From: an uncultured virus (IMG/VR IMGVR_UViG_3300011813_000035)
Taxonomy: Duplodnaviria > Heunggongvirae > Uroviricota > Caudoviricetes
Virus record (IMG/VR): IMGVR_UViG_3300011813_000035
Location: 62,001-126,000 of that record
DNA length: 64,000 bases
Strand: one strand, 5' to 3'
Part shown: positions 2,222 to 62,227 of the stretch, piece by piece
Layout of the letters: each line of letters begins with the position of its first letter
Position numbering within the stretch: position 1 is the first letter of the stretch
The notes under the pieces: generated by a model
Told to the model about the DNA's origin: nothing
What the model saw: only the letters and a program-made list of their open reading frames with translations
Database searches by the model: none
Made by a program: the position numbers and the translations under genes

Positions 2222-2298
2222 TTATTTGAATGGAAAATGTATTAGAGATGGATGGACTAAAAGTAAATAAAACCGAATTTTATAGGGAGGACTTAACC

Positions 2299-2478
2299 AT
2301 GAAAAAATATTTAGTATCATTTATGAAAAAAGGAGAACTTTTTGAAGTAGTAAAAAATGCTTATGATTCCTACGAAGCAAGAAAAATTGTGTCAATTGAA
2401 AACAATATACCAATGAATTTTGAAATTGGTAAATGTGAGGACGAAGATAATCACGTAGGTGCGGTAATAGAGTTATAG
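2299..2478 (+). CDS. Hypothetical protein (start moved to ATG 2299)
   Basis: GGGAGG RBS before 2299. Confidence 0.6.
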   Translation: MKKYLVSFMKKGELFEVVKNAYDSYEARKIVSIENNIPMNFEIGKCEDEDNHVGAVIEL

Positions 2479-2485
2479 AAGTATT

Positions 2486-2555
2486 AGCAGAGTGGAGCGG
2501 CTGACACATAGCCGTTTTAATGCACCTGATATAAGTCAGGCGGTCACAAGTCCGC
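2486..2555 (+). ncRNA. Twister self-cleaving ribozyme, permuted (P5-type) form, copy 1
   Basis: GCAGAGUG - P1 hairpin - UAA UGC AC - P3 hairpin - CGGUCACAAGUCCG. P2 is GCA/UGC; the pseudoknots are GUG/CAC and AC/GU. Predicted cut U2518/A2519. Confidence 0.85.
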
Positions 2556-2576
2556 AAAGTGTAGAATGGAGGGAGA

Positions 2577-2789
2577 ATGGTGACATATTGTGTTAAAGAA
2601 GCCTATACAAACACGGCTTGCTTAAAATTAAAAGAAGAACTTCTTGACAGCGTGGGAGGAAGCTATACTTCTAATTGCATTTATATCACAAAAGGTCAAG
2701 AATGGTATATAAATCAAAGGGGTTATGTACATTTTATTAAAGGAGTGAACGATGTTCTTTTGACTAATGATTTTACATTAAAATATTAA
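2577..2789 (+). CDS. Hypothetical protein
   Basis: GGAGGG RBS downstream of the ribozyme. Confidence 0.55.
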   Translation: MVTYCVKEAYTNTACLKLKEELLDSVGGSYTSNCIYITKGQEWYINQRGYVHFIKGVNDVLLTNDFTLKY

Positions 2790-3050
2790 TACCAATCAAA
2801 CGATTATTTGATGGATATTTAAGATGTCCATATGGTAGGGAGGTAGAAAGGCATGATTGTGAAACAGGTAAACATTGATATAGAGGTAGATAATTCTGAT
2901 ATTAATATGGAAACAATTATAAAAGAGCTTTTAGAAAAACAAGGTTTTAACGTATTGGGAACTGAACAAACGGATATCAGCTATGCGTATTCTAAACATT
3001 GTAACAAACAACCATAACATAAAAACGATTGATTAATTGGAGGAATAAAG

Positions 3051-3383
3051 ATGTCTGATATAGTAAAAACAATCTGTGAATTAAGTAATGGTGAATATTG
3101 GAGTAATACACAGTCCTTCAAAGAAGAGTTTATAAGCCGATTTTATAACGGCTCTGATATCTTTAATAAACTCGATTTAAACGAGTGTACACAATTCTAT
3201 GACAGAGGAAGTAATGCGGAATTGCTCATTTATAATGGTAGACAATGTGTTTATTCATGCTGTTATACGGGATATTACAACCAGAAAATAATTACTTGCA
3301 TCTACGAAAAGAACGGTCTTGTATATAACTATAACATTGATTATGACAAATTGGAGAAGGAGTTTAGCAAGAAGAAGATCTAA
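3051..3383 (+). CDS. Hypothetical protein
   Basis: GGAGG RBS, 110 aa. Confidence 0.65.
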   Translation: MSDIVKTICELSNGEYWSNTQSFKEEFISRFYNGSDIFNKLDLNECTQFYDRGSNAELLIYNGRQCVYSCCYTGYYNQKIITCIYEKNGLVYNYNIDYDKLEKEFSKKKI

Positions 3384-3414: not shown

Positions 3415-3609
3415 ATGTATATAAAACAAGGACAGATATTACAGATCAGAGAAGCAGTTGAGGAAATTAAAAAACTCACAACACTGGAGACTTGTGGACT
3501 GGATAACGAAACAAAAGAGAAAATGAAGTTGTGGGTAATGTGGTTTGATGTTTACGCTAATCAAATAGAATGTGCGTTAAATGGAGAATTAGACGAAAGG
3601 TTTAGATAA
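3415..3609 (+). CDS. Hypothetical protein (start moved to ATG 3415)
   Basis: GGGAGG RBS after the palindrome at 3384. Confidence 0.6.
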   Translation: MYIKQGQILQIREAVEEIKKLTTLETCGLDNETKEKMKLWVMWFDVYANQIECALNGELDERFR

Positions 3610-3611
3610 TC

Positions 3612-3681
3612 AGCAGAGTGGAACGGCTCCCACATAGCCGTTTTAATGCACCTGACACACGTCAGGCGGTCACAAGTCCGC
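3612..3681 (+). ncRNA. Twister self-cleaving ribozyme, copy 2
   Basis: Same core as copy 1. Differences are confined to loops and pairing-compatible stem positions. Predicted cut U3644/A3645. Confidence 0.85.
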
Positions 3682-3705
3682 AAGCATATAGAAGGAGATT
3701 AAAAG

Positions 3706-3891
3706 ATGGATATTAAAGAAAAGCTTTTTCAATATTTATTATCTTTTTGTGACGAAGTCGAAAGCCATTTTTATGGAATTATGGCTTTTAAAAATCAATA
3801 CAAAATCGAATATTATGAAAGAATAAAAAGGGTTGATATTTACGATCTTAATACAGGGAATTTGGTCAAAAGGTATACGTTTAATCGGTAA
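3706..3891 (+). CDS. Hypothetical protein
   Basis: AAGGAG RBS downstream of the ribozyme. Confidence 0.55.
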   Translation: MDIKEKLFQYLLSFCDEVESHFYGIMAFKNQYKIEYYERIKRVDIYDLNTGNLVKRYTFNR

Positions 3892-3929
3892 ATAAACAAT
3901 TAAAATTCTTATTTGATGGAGGAAAGAAA

Positions 3930-4184
3930 ATGGAAAATATTAAATATTATGAAGTAGAAATGAGCAGTAAAACAAAAGTAAAAGAAATGGGAACTTATTC
4001 AATTTGTATTAAAGGATTAAAAAAGCCAACAAGAAAAGAAGCAGAACAATTCATCAAAAAGGATTTAAAGTCAAACGGTTATGACTATGTCAGTTTTGTA
4101 AATGAAATAGATCTTGAAGAAGCAAAGTGTTTCTATGACATGGAAAATGAAACGAACTTTCCGGTATTTGGAAAATTGCAATGA
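3930..4184 (+). CDS. Hypothetical protein
   Basis: GGAGG RBS; bounded by palindromes at 3901 and 4182. Confidence 0.65.
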   Translation: MENIKYYEVEMSSKTKVKEMGTYSICIKGLKKPTRKEAEQFIKKDLKSNGYDYVSFVNEIDLEEAKCFYDMENETNFPVFGKLQ

Positions 4185-4218
4185 ATCTATTCTTTTAAAG
4201 CAAAAGGGAGGTTATAAA

Positions 4219-4410
4219 ATGAATTACGAAATACAATTAACTCACAAAGAAAATATAAGAATAGGTGATACGGTTCTTTGCAACGATGAAAAATTAAGAA
4301 CGGTATGCCGAAATAATATAACAAGAGGATTCATGGGATTATGTCTTTTTGGCGATTCCTACCAATTAGGACGTGAAAAAGTAAAAAAAGTAATTAATTT
4401 AAAATTTTAG
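4219..4410 (+). CDS. Hypothetical protein (start moved to ATG 4219)
   Basis: GGGAGGT RBS. Confidence 0.6.
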   Translation: MNYEIQLTHKENIRIGDTVLCNDEKLRTVCRNNITRGFMGLCLFGDSYQLGREKVKKVINLKF

Positions 4411-4441
4411 TAAATAAGTAGTATAGTATTTGTTTTCAGTC

Positions 4442-4479
4442 AGAAGCCATTGGACAGCGTTCCGGTGGCTTTTATAGTG
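4442..4479 (+). terminator. Terminator-like hairpin; related copies at 12306-12338 and 15468-15508
   Basis: AAGCCATTGGA...TCCGGTGGCTT followed by TT. Confidence 0.55.
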
Positions 4480-4512
4480 AAAATAAATAAAAAATAAATG
4501 GAGGTAATTAAA

Positions 4513-5088
4513 ATGAAGAAGGAATATACGGTAGAGCAATCAGCAGAAAAGGTGTGGTGGTATAAATTTACAGAACCAAACGCAAAAGGCGAAACATTTA
4601 CAATTGAATTATCATTATGTACTAATTGGGGTGGAAGTCATGCACTTCCTGTTTTATGGAAACAACATGGATATATGGACAGAGTTTTAGAAACTTACTG
4701 GTGTATTTCAACATATATGACAGATACAGAAGGAAGAGGTTGGGGAGCATATAACCCACAAAGCAAGCGAAGCGAAGACGGAAAACGTGCAGTTATCAAC
4801 TTTGATTGGATGTTTGAAGGTACAGAAGAAAACAAAGAAAGGTTGATTGATGAAGCATTCAGACTGTTTTCGATAGCTACGGGCGAAACGGCTACAGAAG
4901 AAAAGTACAGGAAAGTTAGAGAATATGCAGAAGAACGCAACATTGAAGTATTAACAGAAATGCCGGAAGGTTGGGTTAATTTGGGTTATTGTACTGCACC
5001 AACTGGATCAACTTATATTGGAAACATGAAGCCTAACTTTCATAATCTCAAAGACGTAAATAGAAGAGAAGCATTATTATTAGTTTAA
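4513..5088 (+). CDS. Hypothetical protein
   Basis: GGAGGT RBS, ~190 aa. Confidence 0.7.
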   Translation: MKKEYTVEQSAEKVWWYKFTEPNAKGETFTIELSLCTNWGGSHALPVLWKQHGYMDRVLETYWCISTYMTDTEGRGWGAYNPQSKRSEDGKRAVINFDWMFEGTEENKERLIDEAFRLFSIATGETATEEKYRKVREYAEERNIEVLTEMPEGWVNLGYCTAPTGSTYIGNMKPNFHNLKDVNRREALLLV

Positions 5089-12878: not shown

Positions 12879-13751
12879 ATGGGAACGAAAAAACAACATT
12901 ATGTGCCGCAGGCTTATCTTGAGAATTTTACAGTCACTGAGCAAATTTGGGTTTATAATAGAGTAAATAGAAAAATATATAAAAGTAATATTAGAGACAC
13001 ATGTGAAAAGAATCATTTATATGAAACAGAGTGGGAAAATAGCCCTAACGATAATAAATTTGTGCAGTATAATGCGATAGAAAATACATTTTCAGACGCA
13101 GAGGGCAGATATGCGGATATACTTAAAAAAGTTATATCTATTTGTAATAATAATGATAATCGGAATGCAATAATACTAAGATCTTCTGAGAAAAAAGCCC
13201 TGGCTAATTTAATAAGTAATTTGTTTGTTAGGAATCCAGTTATTTTAGATGTGTTTATGGATGGGATTGGTGATACGAAAGAGATTTCTGAATTAATGCC
13301 ATATAAGGAATTATTTAATGCACTGGGTGTTTCAGAGTCTGAACCTTTTTTTTTAGCGGCATATAAGAATACAATTACTTTTGAAGAAATTGAAGGATCG
13401 TGGCCTAATATTATCAAAAACTGCATACTTGACATGTACGTATATATATTAAAGTGTCCAGATGGGTTGGAATTTGTGACTGCGTCATTTCCTATCAGAT
13501 ACACAACAAAAGACTTGCAGAGGGATGAATTTATTCTAAATTCCTTGTATGTACCAATAACGCCCTGTTTTGCACTATTGTATTTAGATAAAAAAGTGCC
13601 TGGACGAACAAATAAAATATTTGAAATACAAGAGAAAATGGTAAATAACTTAAATCTTGATTATTTGAAATTTGATTTAAACCGCTCTTATTTAATCTTA
13701 TCTCATAATAAGGAACTCTTAGAGGAGTTAAAAAATAAAGAGCTTGAGTAG
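12879..13751 (+). CDS. DUF4238-family protein
   Basis: N-terminal 'QHYVPQAYL' signature; 'F.T..FP' and 'PITP' motifs. Confidence 0.75.
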   Translation: MGTKKQHYVPQAYLENFTVTEQIWVYNRVNRKIYKSNIRDTCEKNHLYETEWENSPNDNKFVQYNAIENTFSDAEGRYADILKKVISICNNNDNRNAIILRSSEKKALANLISNLFVRNPVILDVFMDGIGDTKEISELMPYKELFNALGVSESEPFFLAAYKNTITFEEIEGSWPNIIKNCILDMYVYILKCPDGLEFVTASFPIRYTTKDLQRDEFILNSLYVPITPCFALLYLDKKVPGRTNKIFEIQEKMVNNLNLDYLKFDLNRSYLILSHNKELLEELKNKELE

Positions 13752-19167: not shown

Positions 19168-21216
19168 GTGGAAGAAGAGCAAAAACAGCAAATTCTAGAA
19201 GAATATGCTTCCAATGGCATGGCAAAGTTGCGTAAAGTATCGTATCCATTATTTATAAAATTCGGTGGGATATCTGAAAAAGATCATGATGATTTTTACA
19301 GCAAAGCCAATATGGAATTGTGGAAGGCAACGGAAGCTTTTAATGAAGCTAATGGCGTACCTTTCGAAGCATATTTATTAGGCTGCCTTAAAAGAAAGTT
19401 TATGACTGAGATGACTGGGCTGAATAGAGAGAAACGTAAATCAGACAGATTATCATCATCTCTTGATGCTCCCATTGGGGAAAATGAGGGAGTAACTCTT
19501 GGAGATACGTTACCATCAGATCTTGATGTTGAGAATATTGTTATTGATAAAATAGATCCTTTAGACGATGAAAACATTCAGGTTTATCTAAAATCTCTTT
19601 CGGAAAAGCAAAAACAAATAGCTAGTCTGATAATGGACGGATACAAACCTTTCGAAATTAGAGAACGTTTGAGATTAACAGAGAATCAATATGTAAGTAA
19701 CCTAAAAGATATGAAGATTTTTGAAAAAGCCATGATATTAAAACAGACAAATTTTGTTCAAATAGAGGAGGAAAAATCAATGAACGATAATTTCACACAA
19801 ACACTAGAGAAAAGTAAATCAAACCGGCTGAGTATAGCTTCTATTATGAAGAAAATAGATAATCGAACCATCAGATTCGATCATCCACTTCAAAGAGCAT
19901 CTGAGCAATGGAGTCCAGCCATGAAAGGAAATTTGATTTCTGATATTTTACAGGGCAATCCTATTCCTCCTCTAGTGTTTGCTGAACAAATCATCAATAA
20001 GCTTGCTATAATTTGGGATTTAGATGGTAAGCAACGATGCACTAATGCTCATTCATTTATAAACGGTAATTATAAGATATCAAAAAATATTAGAAGATGG
20101 AACATTATTTATCAGGCTCAAATCATTGACAATGGTAATCCGATACTTGATGATAATGGATTTCCTATGAGTGAATGTAGGCAGTTTGATATAAGAGGAA
20201 AGCGTTTTGCGGATTTGCCAGAAGAGTTACAGGACAAGTTTAATGAGTATAACTTTGAAATTGTGCAGTATTTGAACTGTTCAAGTGAGGACATTGCTTA
20301 CCATATTGCACGATATAACGAAGGTAAACCTATGTCGGCTTCTCAAAAGGGAATAACGCGACTCGGAGAAGAATTCGCCTCTATAGTAAAAAGCATTTCT
20401 GGAATGTCATTCTTCAAAGATCTTGGAGGATATAAAGTTTCAGAGGGGAACAACGGAACAGTGAATCGTGTGGTAATCGAATCTGTAATGGCGGCGAACT
20501 TTTTAGATGACTGGAAAAAGAAGCAAGAGGATATGTGTGAATATATGAAAGATAATGCCAGCGTTGAATGCTTCGATGATTTTGAAGACTTAGTTGGCAG
20601 AATTACAAATGTTGGGAATGAAGAAGTTTTTAATATGTTTGATTCAAAGGATTCCTTTATCTATTTCGGCTTATTCGCAAGGTTTGCAAATTCTGGATTA
20701 GAAGATGATAAGTTTATAGAATTCATGGCTGAGTTTTCTCAGTCATTACATAGTAAAGATATCGACGGCATTACATTTGATGAGTTAAATGGAAAATCTA
20801 CAAAAGACAAAAACATTGTTATTAGCAAGATTAATCACTTAGAGCGGCTAATGAATGATTATTTACATATTGAAGCAAAAGATGAGAGTTTGAGTTTTAA
20901 TAACGAAGTATCAGTAATTGATTTTGTTAAAGATATCGTGAAGTCTGATGTGACAGAAGAAGACATTGATGATTATTACGATATGCTAAACGGATATAAT
21001 GTGGACAAGAAGTCTATGTTATTAAATTGGAAAAATGAGTCTTCCCTTATTGCCTTGGTAGCCTATTCTTTTGAGAATGAAGTTAATCTGGACGATTGGA
21101 TTGTTGAGTATTTTAAGAAAAACAATGACTTCATGGCAGATCAGAAACAGAATTACTTACATATGCTAGATGATTTCAAAAGCTACACACAATTAATAGA
21201 CAACGAGGCGGTATGA
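19168..21216 (+). CDS. Sigma-70-like N-terminal domain fused to a DUF262/ParB-like domain
   Basis: Sigma region-2/4-like motifs ('LWKATEAFN', 'SSLDAPI', 'LSEKQKQI'); then 'LQR...W', 'PIPP' and 'DGKQR' typical of DUF262. Internal in-frame RBS and ATG at 19780. Confidence 0.75.
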   Translation: MEEEQKQQILEEYASNGMAKLRKVSYPLFIKFGGISEKDHDDFYSKANMELWKATEAFNEANGVPFEAYLLGCLKRKFMTEMTGLNREKRKSDRLSSSLDAPIGENEGVTLGDTLPSDLDVENIVIDKIDPLDDENIQVYLKSLSEKQKQIASLIMDGYKPFEIRERLRLTENQYVSNLKDMKIFEKAMILKQTNFVQIEEEKSMNDNFTQTLEKSKSNRLSIASIMKKIDNRTIRFDHPLQRASEQWSPAMKGNLISDILQGNPIPPLVFAEQIINKLAIIWDLDGKQRCTNAHSFINGNYKISKNIRRWNIIYQAQIIDNGNPILDDNGFPMSECRQFDIRGKRFADLPEELQDKFNEYNFEIVQYLNCSSEDIAYHIARYNEGKPMSASQKGITRLGEEFASIVKSISGMSFFKDLGGYKVSEGNNGTVNRVVIESVMAANFLDDWKKKQEDMCEYMKDNASVECFDDFEDLVGRITNVGNEEVFNMFDSKDSFIYFGLFARFANSGLEDDKFIEFMAEFSQSLHSKDIDGITFDELNGKSTKDKNIVISKINHLERLMNDYLHIEAKDESLSFNNEVSVIDFVKDIVKSDVTEEDIDDYYDMLNGYNVDKKSMLLNWKNESSLIALVAYSFENEVNLDDWIVEYFKKNNDFMADQKQNYLHMLDDFKSYTQLIDNEAV

Positions 21217-31932: not shown

Positions 31933-33111
31933 TTGAAAGCAGAACAGTTTAGGTACGATGTTGGACAGATTATTGGCAATGTTACTATTACGGGACGATT
32001 CAGAGACAGTAAGCGTAATGCCAAGAGATATTATTATTGCTGCAATTTGTGTGGTAATGAAGATGAAACAGTAGAACTTACACTGAAAAGAGTTATAGAT
32101 AATAATGGCGTGGTTTGTAACACTTGTACTGGAATGAAGGTAAAAGCTGGGATTAATGATATCCCAACTACTGCCTCTTGGATGATTTCATATTTTCAAG
32201 GCGGTTATGAAGAAGCAATATTATATAGTCGTTGCAGTCATAAAAAAGTTGCTTTTAAGTGTCCTGACTGTGGAAGAATAAAATCAAAACCTACTATGAT
32301 TAAAGATTTGTATTTCACACATCTTATTCATTGTAGCTGTGGAGACGGGTATAGCTATCCTAACAAGTACATGTATTCAGCACTAGAGCAAATTGGTGTT
32401 GAGTTTATTTCAGAATACACGCCGACATGGATAAAACCTAAAAGATATGATTTCTATATTCCTAGTAAGAGTGTAATTATTGAAATGGACGGTGGCATTG
32501 GACACGGACATACAAATAAACTAAGTAAGCTCAAACCTTCTGAGCACATTCAGAAGGATAAATATAAGGATTTAAAAGCAACTGAAAATGGTATTAAAGT
32601 GATAAGAATTGATTGTCTAGTAAGCGATAGTGGTTACATAAGTAAGAACATAATTGAGAGTAAGGTATTTACAGAAGAAGAACTGGAATTAGTAGATTTT
32701 CACCTATGTGACAAATTTGCAACTAGTAATAAAGCGAAAGAAGTATGCGAATTTTATGAAAATAACAAACCTATTTCTACTTCTAAAATATATGACAAAT
32801 TCAAAATGAGTCCTAGTGCCGTTTGGAAGTATCTCACAATGGGAAATTCCTTTGAGTGGTGCGATTACGAAGGCAAAAGTATTATGAGGAATAATGGATT
32901 AAGTAGGAGAAAACCTGTGTCAATTTTTAAAGATGACATGTTACTCAGAACCTACAATTCTGTTCAGGAATTGTGTAGTAAGAGCGAAGAAGATTTTGGA
33001 ATTCGGTTCACAAAGTCTTGCGTATCAGCAGTAGCACGCAACGAAACAAGCAAATATAAAGAATTTAATTTTAAATATGAAAAGCAAAAGGAGATACAAA
33101 ATGAGTATTGA
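31933..33111 (+). mobile_element. Free-standing homing-endonuclease-like gene (zinc ribbons, PD-(D/E)xK-like core, NUMOD-like tail)
   Basis: CxxC ribbons, 'YDFYIP....IIEMDG..GH', C-terminal 'YNSVQE...VSAVAR'; overlaps the next gene's RBS and start. Confidence 0.7.
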
Positions 33112-45728: not shown

Positions 45729-46706
45729 CTAACCTATATCTGTCATTCGTTTTGCTTCTAACATAGCATAAAAAGAAAAACCTGATTTTGAGGTCTGTGT
45801 TATCTGACCCATTTCTGCTGAATTGACTTTTTCCATCAGCCCGAAACTAATAAGGATGGGGCAGACATCAAATAATAGGAATTGTGAAAATTCTTTCATG
45901 CTACCTTCCATGCTGATTTTATTAGTTAGTCCAGAGCAAAAAACTTTAAAATTTAGAATAAACAATATGAGAGCAGTAAAAGTTCGATCCGCATCTGACT
46001 CAAGAAACTTTTTAGAAACTAGAATTCTCTTTTTACTTAGAATTTTAACTAATTCGTCATAAGAATAATTCCCTATTTGTTCTTTGCTTATTGTATGAAT
46101 TTGTTCCCTTAATTTAATGGCTTCTTCCTTCAAAGAAAGGTTTTCTTTTAAGAGAGTTTCGTTGATTGATAATAATTTAGCCGTATCATTTTCTTGGGTG
46201 TTGCGAATCCAACCCAGCAAATCATTTTTATCTGCAATATCATTTAGTTGAGAATGAACTATAGTAGAAATTTGATCAATGTTTTTTACAAACTTAACAA
46301 TATTAGATTTAACAATAGTGACGAATGAAATGTATTTATCTGTATTGTATTTTTCGAAAATACTCTCCTTATCTATTTGAATAGCTTTAGTGTAAAGATA
46401 ATTATCTTCTAGTATAACAGCAAAGGTGGGCATTTTTTTAGATAGAGCGTATTCGTATTCCAAATGAGTATAACTTTTACCGGATTCTTCATCAATAGAA
46501 CCATAACGCCCACCCACAATAAGCATGTATACATCGGAGTCGTCAATCCATTTTTTAATTGTTTTCATTTGTGATTCACCAGCCTTAAATAATTCCATAC
46601 CGGCTGGAATGTGACCAGCATCAAGAATAGCTTCGACGGCAGCCTGACGCTCTTCAATAAGATCCGTATATGTAGATGAAACGAAAACCTGCAATTTCTT
46701 ATTCAT
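45729..46706 (-). CDS. DUF4062-domain protein (inverted moron; candidate defence gene)
   Basis: 'VFVSSTYTDL..ER...GME...GGRYGS...SYTHLEY' signature; own promoter and terminator. Confidence 0.85.
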   Translation of the reverse strand: MNKKLQVFVSSTYTDLIEERQAAVEAILDAGHIPAGMELFKAGESQMKTIKKWIDDSDVYMLIVGGRYGSIDEESGKSYTHLEYEYALSKKMPTFAVILEDNYLYTKAIQIDKESIFEKYNTDKYISFVTIVKSNIVKFVKNIDQISTIVHSQLNDIADKNDLLGWIRNTQENDTAKLLSINETLLKENLSLKEEAIKLREQIHTISKEQIGNYSYDELVKILSKKRILVSKKFLESDADRTFTALILFILNFKVFCSGLTNKISMEGSMKEFSQFLLFDVCPILISFGLMEKVNSAEMGQITQTSKSGFSFYAMLEAKRMTDIG

Positions 46707-46802
46707 AGCTAGCAGCACCCCATAATTTTTTTATTATTATAGCACAGAAAGGTGTAAATATAAATAGATGTAATAAAATGAAAGCCCGATTTCTTCGGGA
46801 GA

Positions 46803-59378: not shown

Positions 59379-59424
59379 TAACGTTAAAACGGAAGTTTTA
59401 TAGCTCAACAGGTGACAAGGTAAA

Positions 59425-59446
59425 CAAAAAAGGCGACATGATCGCC
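59425..59446 (-). terminator. Intrinsic terminator of the RT operon
   Basis: GGCGA-loop-TCGCC followed by T6 on the - strand. Confidence 0.7.
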
Positions 59447-59449
59447 CAA

Positions 59450-60400
59450 TTATTTTTCTTTAGAAAACTTATATAAATTCTGATATTGACCAGGATTGAC
59501 TTGACGAATGGCAGTTAGTAATCCTTGAAGACGCTTCTTAGATTTTTCTGGATTTAATTTTAGCTCAGTTAATTCATGTATTACCTTAAGGCGCATTGAG
59601 TTTCGAGGTATGGGATTTCCATTCCTGTCAAGAACAACTCCAGTAATAAGTTTTGGATAATTCTTGGTATACGTTTTAACTTTTGACTTGGAAATCATAT
59701 AATGATATTTTGTTACTATTTTATTAACCATAGTTTTAAATCGATAATTAATTTTATTAGCACAAGAAAATGTTACATCGTCGGCATATATTGTCATAAC
59801 TATATTATTTTTAGAAGATAGATTATATAATTCATCAAACATTGGTCTATTTACTAAGTATGATAAAATTGGGCTGGCTGGAGAACCCGTTGCTAAATGG
59901 TTTGAATTTTTTAATTTCTTTTGCATATAAAAACTTTCAACTTTATCAACATTTTTTAAGGGACACAAAGTTAAATCAACTGTTGTTAAGTTGGTAAGAA
60001 TATTTGCAATATCAGGGGAGGTTTTGAGTTCATTAATAAAAAATAAATAGACATATTCTCGAGGTATACATGGGAAGAAAGCTGTTAAATCAATTTTATA
60101 TACATACTTATTCCCTTTATGGATTAATGCGTTATCATAATATGATTTACCTTTAACACCTGAAAAAACATAGTTTGGAACTTTTATTTGACTTAATTGA
60201 GATTTGAGCGATCTTTGAATTTGTTTGACACTGTAAGATGGCGCTTCAACCAATCTTGGTTTAGCTTTCGTATCAATGTAGATATTGTATTCCATTGCAA
60301 TATCTTTTTGATTAAAACTATTCTTATTTGTAATCTTTAATAAGTACCTTAAAGATTTTTTTGACTTTAAGTTATATATTTTACAGTTTGTATAATTCAT
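59450..60400 (-). CDS. Retron-type reverse transcriptase
   Basis: D...FF, TGSP.SP, YADD; retron region X NAxxH (NALIH) and region Y VTG-like (ITG); 316 aa, no maturase or endonuclease domain. Confidence 0.9.
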   Translation of the reverse strand: MNYTNCKIYNLKSKKSLRYLLKITNKNSFNQKDIAMEYNIYIDTKAKPRLVEAPSYSVKQIQRSLKSQLSQIKVPNYVFSGVKGKSYYDNALIHKGNKYVYKIDLTAFFPCIPREYVYLFFINELKTSPDIANILTNLTTVDLTLCPLKNVDKVESFYMQKKLKNSNHLATGSPASPILSYLVNRPMFDELYNLSSKNNIVMTIYADDVTFSCANKINYRFKTMVNKIVTKYHYMISKSKVKTYTKNYPKLITGVVLDRNGNPIPRNSMRLKVIHELTELKLNPEKSKKRLQGLLTAIRQVNPGQYQNLYKFSKEK

Positions 60401-60430
60401 ACAAACACTCCTTGCTTTTTAGTGCTAGTA

Positions 60431-60655
60431 TCAATCCTTAACAATCTCATATAATAACTGGATGAAACGAGATAGGGTTTTAGGATCAACGTGTGGTGCA
60501 ATCAGTGATACGATAAGTAAAGCAACAATGAAGAGTAGTAGTGCTACTATTAACTGACCCAAATTAATATTGTAATTATTATTAATGGTACAATTGGTCA
60601 AGTTGGTCTGATTGTTGCTAAAAATTTGTGGATTTTTATCATCCGGTTTTTTCAT
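60431..60655 (-). CDS. 74-aa membrane protein; candidate retron effector/toxin
   Basis: AAGGAGGTGA RBS, Asn-rich N-terminus, ~20-aa TM helix, amphipathic tail. Confidence 0.75.
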   Translation of the reverse strand: MKKPDDKNPQIFSNNQTNLTNCTINNNYNINLGQLIVALLLFIVALLIVSLIAPHVDPKTLSRFIQLLYEIVKD

Positions 60656-60659
60656 AATT

Positions 60660-61004
60660 CACCTCCTTGTTATTATTGGCTCCATATGGAGTCTCCCAAT
60701 CCATTAATAACAAAGAGATACATAACCTTGCATCACTATACTAGCACAAAACTTACTCCCTATTTTTTTCTATAGGAGATTAAAATTTCAAAACCAACCG
60801 ATTACCTTTTCATTGATGACATAGTCCTACGAACAAACACTTCGCACCGCACCTTTTCCGATACCCGGGGGAGGTACAATCATCTCGTCTCCACTATTGT
60901 CGTCGAAAGGGATTGGGGTTTTAAAAATACTCAGAAGGCTCTGAGTAGCATTCATGTTGGTAGCATGAACCATATTGGGAGAAATCTGGTTATTATTCAC
61001 TGAC
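60660..61004 (-). ncRNA. Retron msr-msd-like ncRNA
   Basis: 9-bp inverted repeat 60974-60982/60692-60700, two short 5' hairpins (60950-60970, 60928-60947), long stem 60790-60825/60893-60922. Confidence 0.7.
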
Positions 61005-61010
61005 ATGGGC

Positions 61011-61039
61011 ATTATATCATATTTTGGAAAAAACATCAA
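61011..61039 (-). promoter_or_regulatory. Sigma-A promoter of the retron cassette
   Basis: TTGATG-N17-TATAAT with extended -10 TG. Confidence 0.8.
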
Positions 61040-61066
61040 TTAAAATTGGGATTTTAAAGGAGGGTT

Positions 61067-61600: not shown

Positions 61601-62227
61601 ATGGGGTATAAGGATATTTTGGGCAGAGAACTCCACGACGGAGATATTTGTGTCGGAAAAGGAACGGGTAGAGATGTATGTGGAATGGACGTTGGTATAT
61701 GGTCTGGCAAATCTATTGCATTTAAGGGCGGAAATAAACGTTCAATGGGAGATGTATTTCTTGTAGTAAATCCAACAGAAGAAGAACTGACAATTAAAAG
61801 TGATATTGAAAAATCTTTAATTGAAAGCGAGAACAAAAGACTAGAAAGAGATTCTGTAAAAACAATACCACTAAGTAAACTTGAAGTTGGTGGAATATAT
61901 GAATGTAACAATAATTACTTGTACCTGTATTTAGGAAAACGCAAAGTCACATTTAAAAATCTACAGTATAAAAATTCTGATCCTAAAGTTCAGGAGGGAC
62001 ATTGCTTTGTTTTTGCTTGCGGATCTGATGACGAAAAAATAAAGAAAGATATCGTTGAAATTGGAACGTATCATGGAAATCATAGAATAGAAGTATTGAA
62101 GGGAAATAAGAAACTCACAAAACTAATTCGCAAGATTGATTTAGAGTTCCCCATGGTTAATGAGGTGCATAGCGAAGGATACCTCAGATATAGTCCAAAT
62201 TATCATTATGAATTAACAGTAGAATAG
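61601..62227 (+). CDS. Hypothetical protein
   Basis: AAGGAGGT RBS. Confidence 0.7.
   Translation: MGYKDILGRELHDGDICVGKGTGRDVCGMDVGIWSGKSIAFKGGNKRSMGDVFLVVNPTEEELTIKSDIEKSLIESENKRLERDSVKTIPLSKLEVGGIYECNNNYLYLYLGKRKVTFKNLQYKNSDPKVQEGHCFVFACGSDDEKIKKDIVEIGTYHGNHRIEVLKGNKKLTKLIRKIDLEFPMVNEVHSEGYLRYSPNYHYELTVE

Follow-up and report, generated by a model that had tools for sequence, protein, structure and literature searches.

What kind of element is a reverse transcriptase (RT) unit that runs against the genes of a large phage-like region, and how is the small protein that it encodes held in check? The question is raised by a 64,000-nt stretch of DNA from an uncultured member of the Caudoviricetes (positions 62,001 to 126,000 of the IMG/VR record IMGVR_UViG_3300011813_000035; hereafter, the window). 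The unit spans positions 61056-59385 of the window on the minus strand, and the surrounding phage genes are on the plus strand in the open reading frame (ORF) listing. Its order is promoter-like site, leader of ∼350 nt, small protein (SP), RT, and terminator-like hairpin. An earlier note, made from the sequence alone, had described a complete minus-strand retron unit at this location, a layout that is borne out by the ORFs for RT (60400-59450) and SP (60655-60431). Our analysis indicates that the unit is probably a Type VI-like retron that has two genes and three parts and lacks a helix-turn-helix (HTH) protein, carried as an opposite-strand accessory cassette of an SPbeta-like prophage, in which the RNA would cage SP and infection-triggered complementary DNA (cDNA) would free it.

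The RT (positions 59450 to 60400, minus strand; 316 aa) carries the motifs NALIH, YADD, and ITG, as noted before, and residues N90, A91, H94, Y205, D207, D208, T253, and G254 are invariant across 23 relatives in the RT alignment. Mestre et al. reportedly regard the motifs NAxxH, YxDD, and xTG as retron specific. The only Pfam match was RVT_1. Among the PADLOC models, RT_VI matched best (2.6e-69, 231.6 bits, profile positions 2-276 of 279) and RT_III-A second best (136 bits); the top matches were all retron RT models, and the relatives P0002, P0007, and P0109 gave a similar pattern. All 12 PDB matches were likewise retron RTs. For calibration, the III-A RT of the same genome reached 429 bits with its own model and 207 bits with RT_VI, and the Ec107-like RT reached 475 and 187 bits, respectively. 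RT_VI is clearly the best model for the window RT, yet the scores mark the protein as a divergent relative of RT_VI. A tally of RT_VI matches across the genomes of relatives (26/41) was rejected as a family count because the model also matches other retron types at 180 to 207 bits.

Placing the RT in a retron phylogeny had been proposed in the earlier note as a check on its retron assignment. In a maximum likelihood tree of 31 RTs, with Types IV and V not among them, 21 family rows and five HTH-linked Type VI phage RTs (from phages MuM16-1, Pmp14, P2_2H1, ST147-VIM1phi7.1, and KS5) formed one clade with support of 100/99, to the exclusion of the I-A, II-A, III-A, Ec107-like, and Staphylococcus phage LY01 RTs. 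The model scores, the structural matches, and the tree position all agree with the retron assignment, and by sequence comparison, the RT is of the retron type and, among the types compared, nearest to Type VI.

Type VI, in the available text of Mestre et al. (PMC7736814), comprises clade 3 RTs whose partners are a Cro/C1 HTH protein and small auxiliary proteins, and ∼78% of 158 Type VI entries encode the HTH protein according to the accessible part of a later preprint (bioRxiv 10.64898/2026.04.27.721009). The distribution of these partners was examined in the relatives of the window RT. A protein search returned 376 proteins at an E value of ≤1e-20 among 2680 candidates; the closest were 98, 82, and 72% identical, and the rest, mostly from Clostridia, were ≤57% identical. 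Scans of pattern-matched stretches yielded 157 relatives among 296 stretches of species genomes (80 kept), 10 among 47 stretches of viral contigs, and 386 among 533 stretches of metagenomes (80 kept). The counts below refer to 90 loci, namely, the 80 kept species-genome relatives and the 10 viral-contig relatives. In neither the 90 loci nor the window is SP separated from RT by an HTH gene, and among 66 neighbor proteins at 14 loci, an HTH_3 gene was found at one locus only, ∼660 nt downstream and on the opposite strand. The neighbors vary and include TIR, SIR2, an MjaI restriction enzyme, methylases, integrases, and phage genes. At loci L001, L003, and L007, the TIR, MjaI-type restriction, and SIR2 genes lie downstream of RT in settings that resemble defense islands. 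Thus, of the two protein features of Type VI, the small accessory protein upstream of RT is present and the Cro/C1 HTH gene (cluster 2_1) upstream of or overlapping RT is missing. Because the missing gene defines the type, we file the unit as a Type VI variant and not as a strict member; it is most likely an offshoot of the Type VI lineage.

SP (positions 60431 to 60655, minus strand; 74 aa, with GGAGG ahead of its start) has a polar Asn-rich N terminus, a predicted membrane helix at residues 32-52, and a C-terminal helix at residues 58-73. AlphaFold, run on the family alignment, gave a mean predicted local distance difference test (pLDDT) score of 64.2, with 75 to 83 over the helices and a disordered N terminus; SP matched no Pfam family. 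A small ORF ends ≤90 nt upstream of RT in 87 of the 90 loci. Counting the window, 57 of the 88 upstream small ORFs have an MKKAD-like start, and these ORFs share the polar Asn-rich stretch, hydrophobic helix, proline, and C-terminal helix; the window SP is collinear with those of its relatives at 18 to 32% identity. The membrane protein proposed by the earlier note is therefore a constant partner of RT, and the predicted helix and shared layout indicate a conserved small membrane protein. Distant RT relatives (L060-L069 and L070-L080; 37 to 46% identity) have other classes of small protein upstream of RT, one with a lysine-rich amphipathic C terminus like that of the SP of Klebsiella phage ST147-VIM1phi7.1 and another with an N-terminal hydrophobic helix. 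The leaders of L060-L080 could not be aligned to the RNA model described below.

To compare the leaders, one locus with too little upstream DNA and three duplicates were dropped, and the remaining 53 were thinned to 36 rows of <93% identity. The family proteins are ∼50% identical, yet the noncoding sequence aligns well. On the 5′ side, the conserved elements begin with the promoter and, at the predicted start, GUCAGU; then come an invariant CAG, an a1-like arm, and an invariant UGG (U60972, G60971, and G60970 in the window). These are followed by hairpin 1, hairpin 2 with a U-run, a variable long hairpin, and repeat copy 1, and then by the 5′ arm of a long-range helix, a GUGAUAC...GGCUGC stretch, and a strand complementary to the SP ribosome-binding site (RBS), here called the anti-RBS strand. 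Repeat copy 2 beside a small variable hairpin, the RBS, the coding sequence of SP, and the 3′ arm of the long-range helix complete the order. The alignment, pair counts, and RNAalifold together show that the leader and the SP message make up one conserved structured RNA of ∼600 nt, presumably a single transcript, at positions 60400 to 61004 (minus strand). It resembles the hybrid RNAs (hyRNAs) of Type VI retrons in joining an msr-msd-bearing leader to the SP coding sequence and a closing arm on the 3′ side. The earlier note had counted a lack of conserved leader structure as grounds for abandoning the retron reading; the leader proved to be structured and covarying in the 36 relatives. Its picture of a separate noncoding RNA (ncRNA) followed by an effector gene has to be given up, as the ncRNA and the effector mRNA form one hybrid RNA with the effector RBS paired away.

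Two of the helices bear directly on SP. The closing, long-range helix joins a 5′ arm (UGUGCUAGUA; 60739 to 60748, minus strand) to a 3′ arm directly past the SP stop codon (60422 to 60430, minus strand). It is 10 bp long, with 98.1% of the alignment cells paired and 8 of the 10 pairs changed on both sides; in 52 of the 53 distinct leaders, the complementarity is perfect over 8 nt or more, and the window deviates from most relatives at paired positions in both arms. The anti-RBS strand (60706 to 60718, minus strand) forms a 13-bp helix with the SP ribosome-binding region (60662 to 60674, minus strand), which includes GGAGG at 60666-60662 (96.4% of cells paired). The small variable hairpin next to repeat copy 2 (60691-60680, minus strand) lies within the loop of this helix. 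The coding sequence for SP is itself folded into the RNA on the minus strand: the alignment pair counts support a helix within it (60647-60639 with 60465-60457), a helix with the 5′ end of the RNA (60508-60501 with 61004-60996), and a helix with the leader (60500-60494 with 60735-60729), the last also found by RNAalifold.

In total, 75 pairs in nine helices were scored over the 36 rows. Standard pairs occupied 95.2% of the cells, compared to 32 to 50% when the columns were slid by 1 to 3 positions, and 46 pairs were changed on both sides, compared to 15 to 19 in the slid controls; none of 500 shuffles reached any of the observed structure measures. The helices were picked from the same alignment, and therefore, two further checks were made. 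RNAalifold, run unguided, predicted 72 pairs, 49 of them with compensatory changes, and recovered hairpins 1 and 2, the closing helix, the RBS helix with its inner hairpin, and the 60735-60729/60500-60494 helix. The second check used metagenome loci held out of the alignment: 72 of the 80 had ≥640 nt upstream, and 14 of these were <90% identical to the alignment rows and to each other. In these 14, the paired cells numbered 133/140 for the closing helix, 177/182 for the RBS helix, 124/126 for the coding-sequence helix, and 104/112 for the 5′-end helix. The values were lower for hairpin 1 (59/84), hairpin 2 (99/140), and helix B (67/84), a result of the offset of one subgroup in the fixed-length alignment. 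The minimum free energy of the window hybrid RNA was −151.5 kcal/mol (z score of −2.68 against 20 shuffles).

The pairing around the SP start bears on how SP might be controlled. In a canonical retron toxin-antitoxin (TA) arrangement, multicopy single-stranded DNA (msDNA) of ∼160 to 220 nt would be constitutive and abundant, RT-msDNA would hold SP inactive, and a phage factor would free SP by disturbing the msDNA. The a1/partner repeats, invariant G, msr hairpins, and long msd hairpin do look classic, and the Type VI Retron-Sen3 makes single-stranded DNA (ssDNA) constitutively. However, a conserved 13-bp helix covers the SP RBS and the coding sequence is part of the RNA fold, which both speak for translational control, and no msDNA was detectable at rest in six Type VI retrons in the available text of the preprint that describes Sen3 (bioRxiv 10.64898/2026.04.27.721009 for both statements). 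We consider the canonical arrangement unlikely for this unit. Posttranslational control like that of Sen3, with SP always made and neutralized by RT or by a host or prophage factor, the HTH antitoxin being absent, appears improbable. The precedent is that the Sen3 HTH-SP pair works as a TA pair independently of RT and ncRNA, as reported in the accessible portion of the same preprint (bioRxiv 10.64898/2026.04.27.721009). This form of control is disfavored by the conserved sequestration of the RBS and by the finding that no conserved candidate antitoxin gene lies beside the unit at the 14 loci.

The 5′ part of the RNA contains the features expected of a reverse transcription template. Hairpin 1 (60950 to 60970, minus strand; 6 to 7 pairs) has 96.7% of its cells paired and 3 pairs changed on both sides, and hairpin 2 (60928 to 60948, minus strand), which is followed by a U-run, has 10 pairs, 9 of which are changed on both sides; both are recovered by RNAalifold. 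By alignment columns, hairpin 2 spans 60948-60929, and the window's own hairpin spans 60947-60928. Both of the msr-like hairpins seen by the earlier note are thus conserved with compensatory changes. Hairpin 2 of the window together with the U-run (60947-60928, minus strand) also has the shape of an intrinsic terminator and might attenuate transcription into msd and SP. The variable long-hairpin region (60764 to 60925, minus strand), which is presumed to be the msd template and includes the long stem, measures 162 nt in the window and 68 to 163 nt in the relatives.

The long stem had been thought to pair better on the cDNA strand than on the transcript, as if the cDNA were the folded species. 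For the window, this is correct: the plus strand (cDNA sense) of the long-stem region folds to −42.2 versus −35.3 kcal/mol with RNA parameters and to −14.5 versus −12.3 kcal/mol with DNA parameters. As a trait of the family, it fails, the cDNA sense being more stable in 13/36 relatives with RNA parameters and in 16/36 with DNA parameters; these counts rule out the folded cDNA as a general argument, and the variable region has no consistent strand preference. As a control, the msr hairpins were more stable in the RNA sense in 35/36 relatives and are therefore selected as RNA.

The terminal repeats were more complex than the single a1/a2 pair of the earlier note. The a1-like arm (UCUCCCAAU; 60974 to 60982, minus strand) has a core, CUCCC, that covaries with two downstream copies. 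Copy 1 (60754 to 60763, minus strand; core GGGAG at 60760-60756) occupies the canonical a2 position directly 3′ of msd, and copy 2 (AUUGGGAGA; 60692 to 60700, minus strand), which the earlier note had taken as a2, lies in the loop closed by the anti-RBS:RBS helix. The perfect 9-nt inverted repeat between 60982-60974 and 60700-60692 exists, and its core covaries with the partner. On its own, it is at chance level, at least one perfect 9-mer inverted repeat being present in 62% of 300 dinucleotide shuffles, and it is the other copy that sits where a2 would be expected. The 606-nt region as a whole has 7 such repeats, compared to 1.26 ± 1.42 in the shuffles, 2 of which (2/300) reach 7.

Across the 36 rows, the a1/partner classes are GACUUC/GAAGUC (24 rows), CUCCC/GGGAG (7 rows, including the window), and CUUCC/GGAAG (3 rows). 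Watson-Crick pairing of ≥5 bp with the row's own a1 is possible for copy 1 in 33/36 rows and for copy 2 in 35/36; among 516 cross-class pairings, 33% reach this length. For the window, the a1 pairing extends over 9 bp with copy 2 and over 5 bp with copy 1; in most relatives, a1 and the invariant CAGAU can extend the pairing onto copy 1. The argument for the a1/copy pairings rests on the covariation of sequence classes because helix length discriminates weakly. The invariant GG between a1 and hairpin 1 (60970 to 60971, minus strand) includes G60971, which is predicted to be unpaired and is the leading candidate for the branch point; G60986, an invariant position in the CAG motif, is an alternative candidate. 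With copy 1 as a2, the template could be at most ∼160 nt, and with copy 2, it could be ∼225 nt. For comparison, the products reported in the available texts are 63 to 86 nt for the Type VI Retron-Vpa2 (bioRxiv 10.1101/2025.10.22.683967) and about 112 and 145 nt for Sen3 (bioRxiv 10.64898/2026.04.27.721009).

Two partners for one arm could make up a switch, in which the pairing partner of a1 would be copy 1, at the a2 position, or copy 2, in the loop that cages the RBS. Under this more tentative proposal, the unit would be a self-sufficient retron gated by RNA only, without a protein repressor or antitoxin; the three-way covarying switch would couple reverse transcription to the opening of the toxin RBS, and the pseudoknots between the 5′ end and the coding sequence would add to the control. 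Some of the supported helices cross (those formed by the SP coding sequence with the 5′ end, with 60735-60729, and internally, together with the long-range helix), and the hybrid RNA is therefore expected to be pseudoknotted or to alternate between folds.

The promoter-like site (61011 to 61039, minus strand) comprises TTGATG, a 17-nt spacer, and an extended −10 element, TG-TATAAT (10/12 matches), and TTGA...TGnTATAAT with equal spacing is also present in the aligned relatives. The predicted transcript start, at ∼61004, coincides with the point at which cross-family conservation sets in. SP and RT are separated by 30 nt, which carry the RBS of RT (AAGGAG, 60413-60408), and an intrinsic-terminator-like hairpin with a T-run (59431 to 59447, minus strand) begins 3 nt past the RT stop. 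A 70-aa ORF in the leader (61039-60827) was not counted as a gene because its start lies inside the −35 box, it matches no Pfam or PADLOC family, and it lacks a conserved counterpart; ORFs in the leaders of the relatives are inconsistent, with a median longest ORF of 49 aa and ORFs of ≥60 aa in 9/36. The hybrid RNA corresponds to no known family in Rfam, where 10 matches were obtained with E values of 0.54 to 8.2, all far under the gathering scores. A blastn search of the cassette against 50,697 phage records gave no match.

The earlier note had called the cassette phage carried. It is indeed an opposite-strand insert among phage genes, but the carrier is an integrated prophage and not a free phage genome. 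The window corresponds to G000:C1:179386-243385 in a 4.93-Mb genome (44 contigs, 99.98% complete), whose contig C1 has 525,237 bases. It encodes a DnaB-like helicase, a RecJ-like exonuclease, an NAD-dependent DNA ligase, an RNA ligase, a methyltransferase, and a 1357-aa DNA polymerase, 99% of whose length matches the polymerase of SPbeta and its relatives at 45% identity. Ordinary chromosomal genes, with a G+C content of 39.4%, lie ∼19 kb past the window end and encode a penicillin-binding protein, CheW, an M32 carboxypeptidase, and a LysR regulator; the window and a phage-like stretch 47 to 59 kb upstream of it have 33.7% G+C. From the chromosomal genes beyond the window, the G+C contrast, and the SPbeta-like polymerase, we take the carrier to be a large SPbeta-like prophage integrated in a chromosomal contig. 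The host is a gut-type Firmicute, placed near Lacrimispora by a homology search in which a flanking host protein was 88% identical to its Lacrimispora aerotolerans counterpart; by exact sequence, two flanking host proteins had no match.

A cassette in a prophage might serve the prophage itself, either as a type I TA-style addiction or stabilization cassette or as a lysis-timing helper, with RT in a regulatory role. The small hydrophobic SP, an mRNA that folds back in a manner reminiscent of hok, and the opposite-strand insertion in a prophage would suit such a module. Nonetheless, many of the relatives' units lie outside prophages, beside TIR, SIR2, and restriction genes, and no antisense RNA partner is evident. 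The studied retrons of this RT clade, as presented in the accessible parts of two preprints (bioRxiv 10.1101/2025.10.22.683967 and 10.64898/2026.04.27.721009), all defend against phage, and we regard a prophage-serving role as very unlikely.

Several other genes of the prophage and its host were recorded. A second opposite-strand gene in the prophage replication module (45729-46718, minus strand) encodes a DUF4062 protein (100 bits; phrog_15411) without a PADLOC match and is possibly a second accessory cassette. Plus-strand genes at 12879-13751 and 590-1480 encode a DUF4238 protein and a protein weakly matching the PADLOC candidate PDC-M59A (7.2e-9), which are possible further defense or counterdefense genes of the prophage. 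A 682-aa protein (19168-21216, plus strand) has both a match to sigma-70 region 2 and a GmrSD_N (DUF262-type) domain, an unusual fusion for a phage, and an ORF resembling HNH and homing endonucleases (31933-33111, plus strand; phrog_4538 and phrog_559) lies amid the replication genes. The genome has two further retron RTs. One belongs to a complete Type III-A retron (L099; G000:C3:4500-10500) with RT at 2278-3291, a 99-aa protein at 3530-3829, and a 297-aa protein at 3829-4722, all on the minus strand, which match RT_III-A (429 bits), WH_III-A, and PRTase_III-A (220 bits) in PADLOC. The other is the Ec107-like RT (475 bits; 2386-3366, plus strand, of L100, G000:C22:28000-34000).

Taken together, the Type VI-like RT, the constant SP, and the hybrid RNA suggest the following course of events, which we infer from the anatomy of the unit and from Vpa2. 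In an uninfected lysogen, the RNA fold would leave SP untranslated, and RT, made from its own ribosome site, would bind the msr hairpins. When a different phage infects the cell, cDNA would build up from priming at the conserved G. Either this cDNA or an RNA rearrangement that it causes at a1, copy 1, and copy 2 would then free the SP ribosome site. SP would insert into the membrane, stop the cell, and abort the infection, and the lysogen population would be protected. Without an HTH protein, control would rest on RNA alone. We infer that the unit produces msDNA and acts against phages.

Several points weigh against this reading. The Cro/C1 HTH protein that defines Type VI is absent here and is needed against toxicity in both Vpa2 and Sen3; the analogy to Vpa2 is therefore weakest exactly at the missing protein. 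At 232 bits, the RT_VI match is modest when set against the 429 and 475 bits that the genome's other retron RTs reach with their own models. Types IV and V are the published sister groups of Type VI (bioRxiv 10.64898/2026.04.27.721009, accessible text), and because their RTs are absent from the tree, it does not separate Type VI from these types. The 75-pair set was chosen by scanning the alignment on which it was scored, which inflates the paired percentage, and several of the supported helices cross, so that more than one active fold is possible. The mean a1:copy helix lengths (6.8 and 6.3) barely exceed those of a shuffled a1 (6.0 and 5.3). Finally, the sequencing runs that contain part of the stretch were three DNA metagenome runs from one study, with no RNA runs among them.

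The unit is of interest because Type VI is the one retron type whose reverse-transcribed DNA turns the toxin on rather than holding it off. Both studied Type VI systems contain an HTH protein, which muddies the analysis of the switch; a large HTH-less family that keeps the RNA architecture offers a simpler system in which to ask whether RNA alone cages and releases a toxin, and the covariation supplies explicit base pairs for mutation. The family extends Type VI-like retrons to Lachnospiraceae, other Clostridia, and SPbeta-like prophages, an extension of relevance to competition among phages in gut and fermentation communities. Builders of retron tools might also find the 1.6-kb unit of interest. 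If the proposal of gating by RNA only is true, the unit would represent a minimal form of Type VI and a natural, compact, ssDNA-responsive riboregulator that is widespread in gut Clostridia and their phages.

Among known systems, hok/sok, a type I TA system, also has a small membrane toxin whose mRNA is made untranslatable by long-range fold-back between its 5′ and 3′ ends and by pairing of the RBS. It differs from the present unit, for which no antisense RNA is evident and in which an RT and a reverse transcription template within the same RNA are present. Two general features of retrons are found, namely, the RT motifs and a structured ncRNA with terminal inverted repeats, a conserved G, and msr hairpins. 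Type IV retrons (e.g., Retron-Eco8/Ec48) share the membrane protein effector and an RT of the broad clade 3. In the available text of PMC7736814, however, their effector has two membrane helices and is encoded downstream of or overlapping RT; here, SP has one predicted helix and is encoded upstream of RT, inside the RNA, and a terminator directly follows the RT stop.

Units of HTH and RT genes have already been noted in MuM16-1 and P2-like phages in the accessible part of PMC8541194, and the gene orders of those in MuM16-1, P2_2H1, Klebsiella ST147-VIM1phi7.1, KS5, and Pasteurella Pmp14 were checked. They resemble the window unit in their carriage by prophages or temperate phages and in a small ORF upstream, and their RTs are the closest matches in the phage collection (28 to 35% identity) and form the sister clade in the tree. 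They differ in that the regulator gene overlaps the RT start and that their carriers are proteobacterial P2-like or Mu-like phages, not a giant SPbeta-like prophage; a phage SP of this canonical kind resembles the window SP in layout only. Inverted-repeat scans of three canonical phage Type VI loci found nothing alignable to the hybrid RNA. Full-text literature searches yielded no account of a clostridial SP-RT lineage lacking the HTH gene or of an SPbeta-like prophage bearing a retron, although supplementary tables may list such units.

The closest counterparts are the two studied Type VI retrons, with which the unit shares the features of the hybrid RNA: an embedded SP coding sequence, a sequestered RBS, an inverted repeat around SP, and direct repeats. 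As described in the available text of Zhang et al. (bioRxiv 10.1101/2025.10.22.683967), Retron-Vpa2 of Vibrio parahaemolyticus has a hybrid RNA of ∼470 nt that combines msr-msd with the SP message. In this RNA, stems enclose the RBS and start codon, the 3′ end is paired back with the leader, and there are direct repeats of 7 nt. The Vpa2 msDNA appears only upon triggering and is required for SP translation. The window unit resembles it in the contiguous RNA with msr-msd and SP coding sequence, the RBS in a stem, the pairing of the 3′ end with the leader, the short direct repeats in the template region and the riboregulator loop, and a small SP relying on a hydrophobic helix. The difference is that the Cro/C1 HTH protein of Vpa2 binds RT and the hyRNA, represses reverse transcription, and averts toxicity, and there is none here. 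The hosts also differ, being Proteobacteria for Vpa2 and Lachnospiraceae and their prophages for the present family, and the Vpa2 SP has no evident sequence likeness to the family SP, the published SP clusters not having been searched for homology.

Retron-Sen3 has the same architecture as Vpa2, with constitutive ssDNA and the HTH protein as an antitoxin, in the accessible text of Garcia-Rodriguez et al. (bioRxiv 10.64898/2026.04.27.721009). Its gene order, SP-HTH-RT, and its protein antitoxin set it apart from the window unit. The likeness to the Sen3/cl2075 lineage lies in an ncRNA within ∼280 nt of the SP start, a sequestered RBS, a long variable internal stem-loop as the candidate DNA template, IR1-IR2 pairing around SP, and an SP coding sequence under RNA structural selection. 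The IR1-IR2 stem had no significant covariation in the portion of that work available, whereas in the equivalent helix of the present family, covariation extends to 8 of the 10 pairs.

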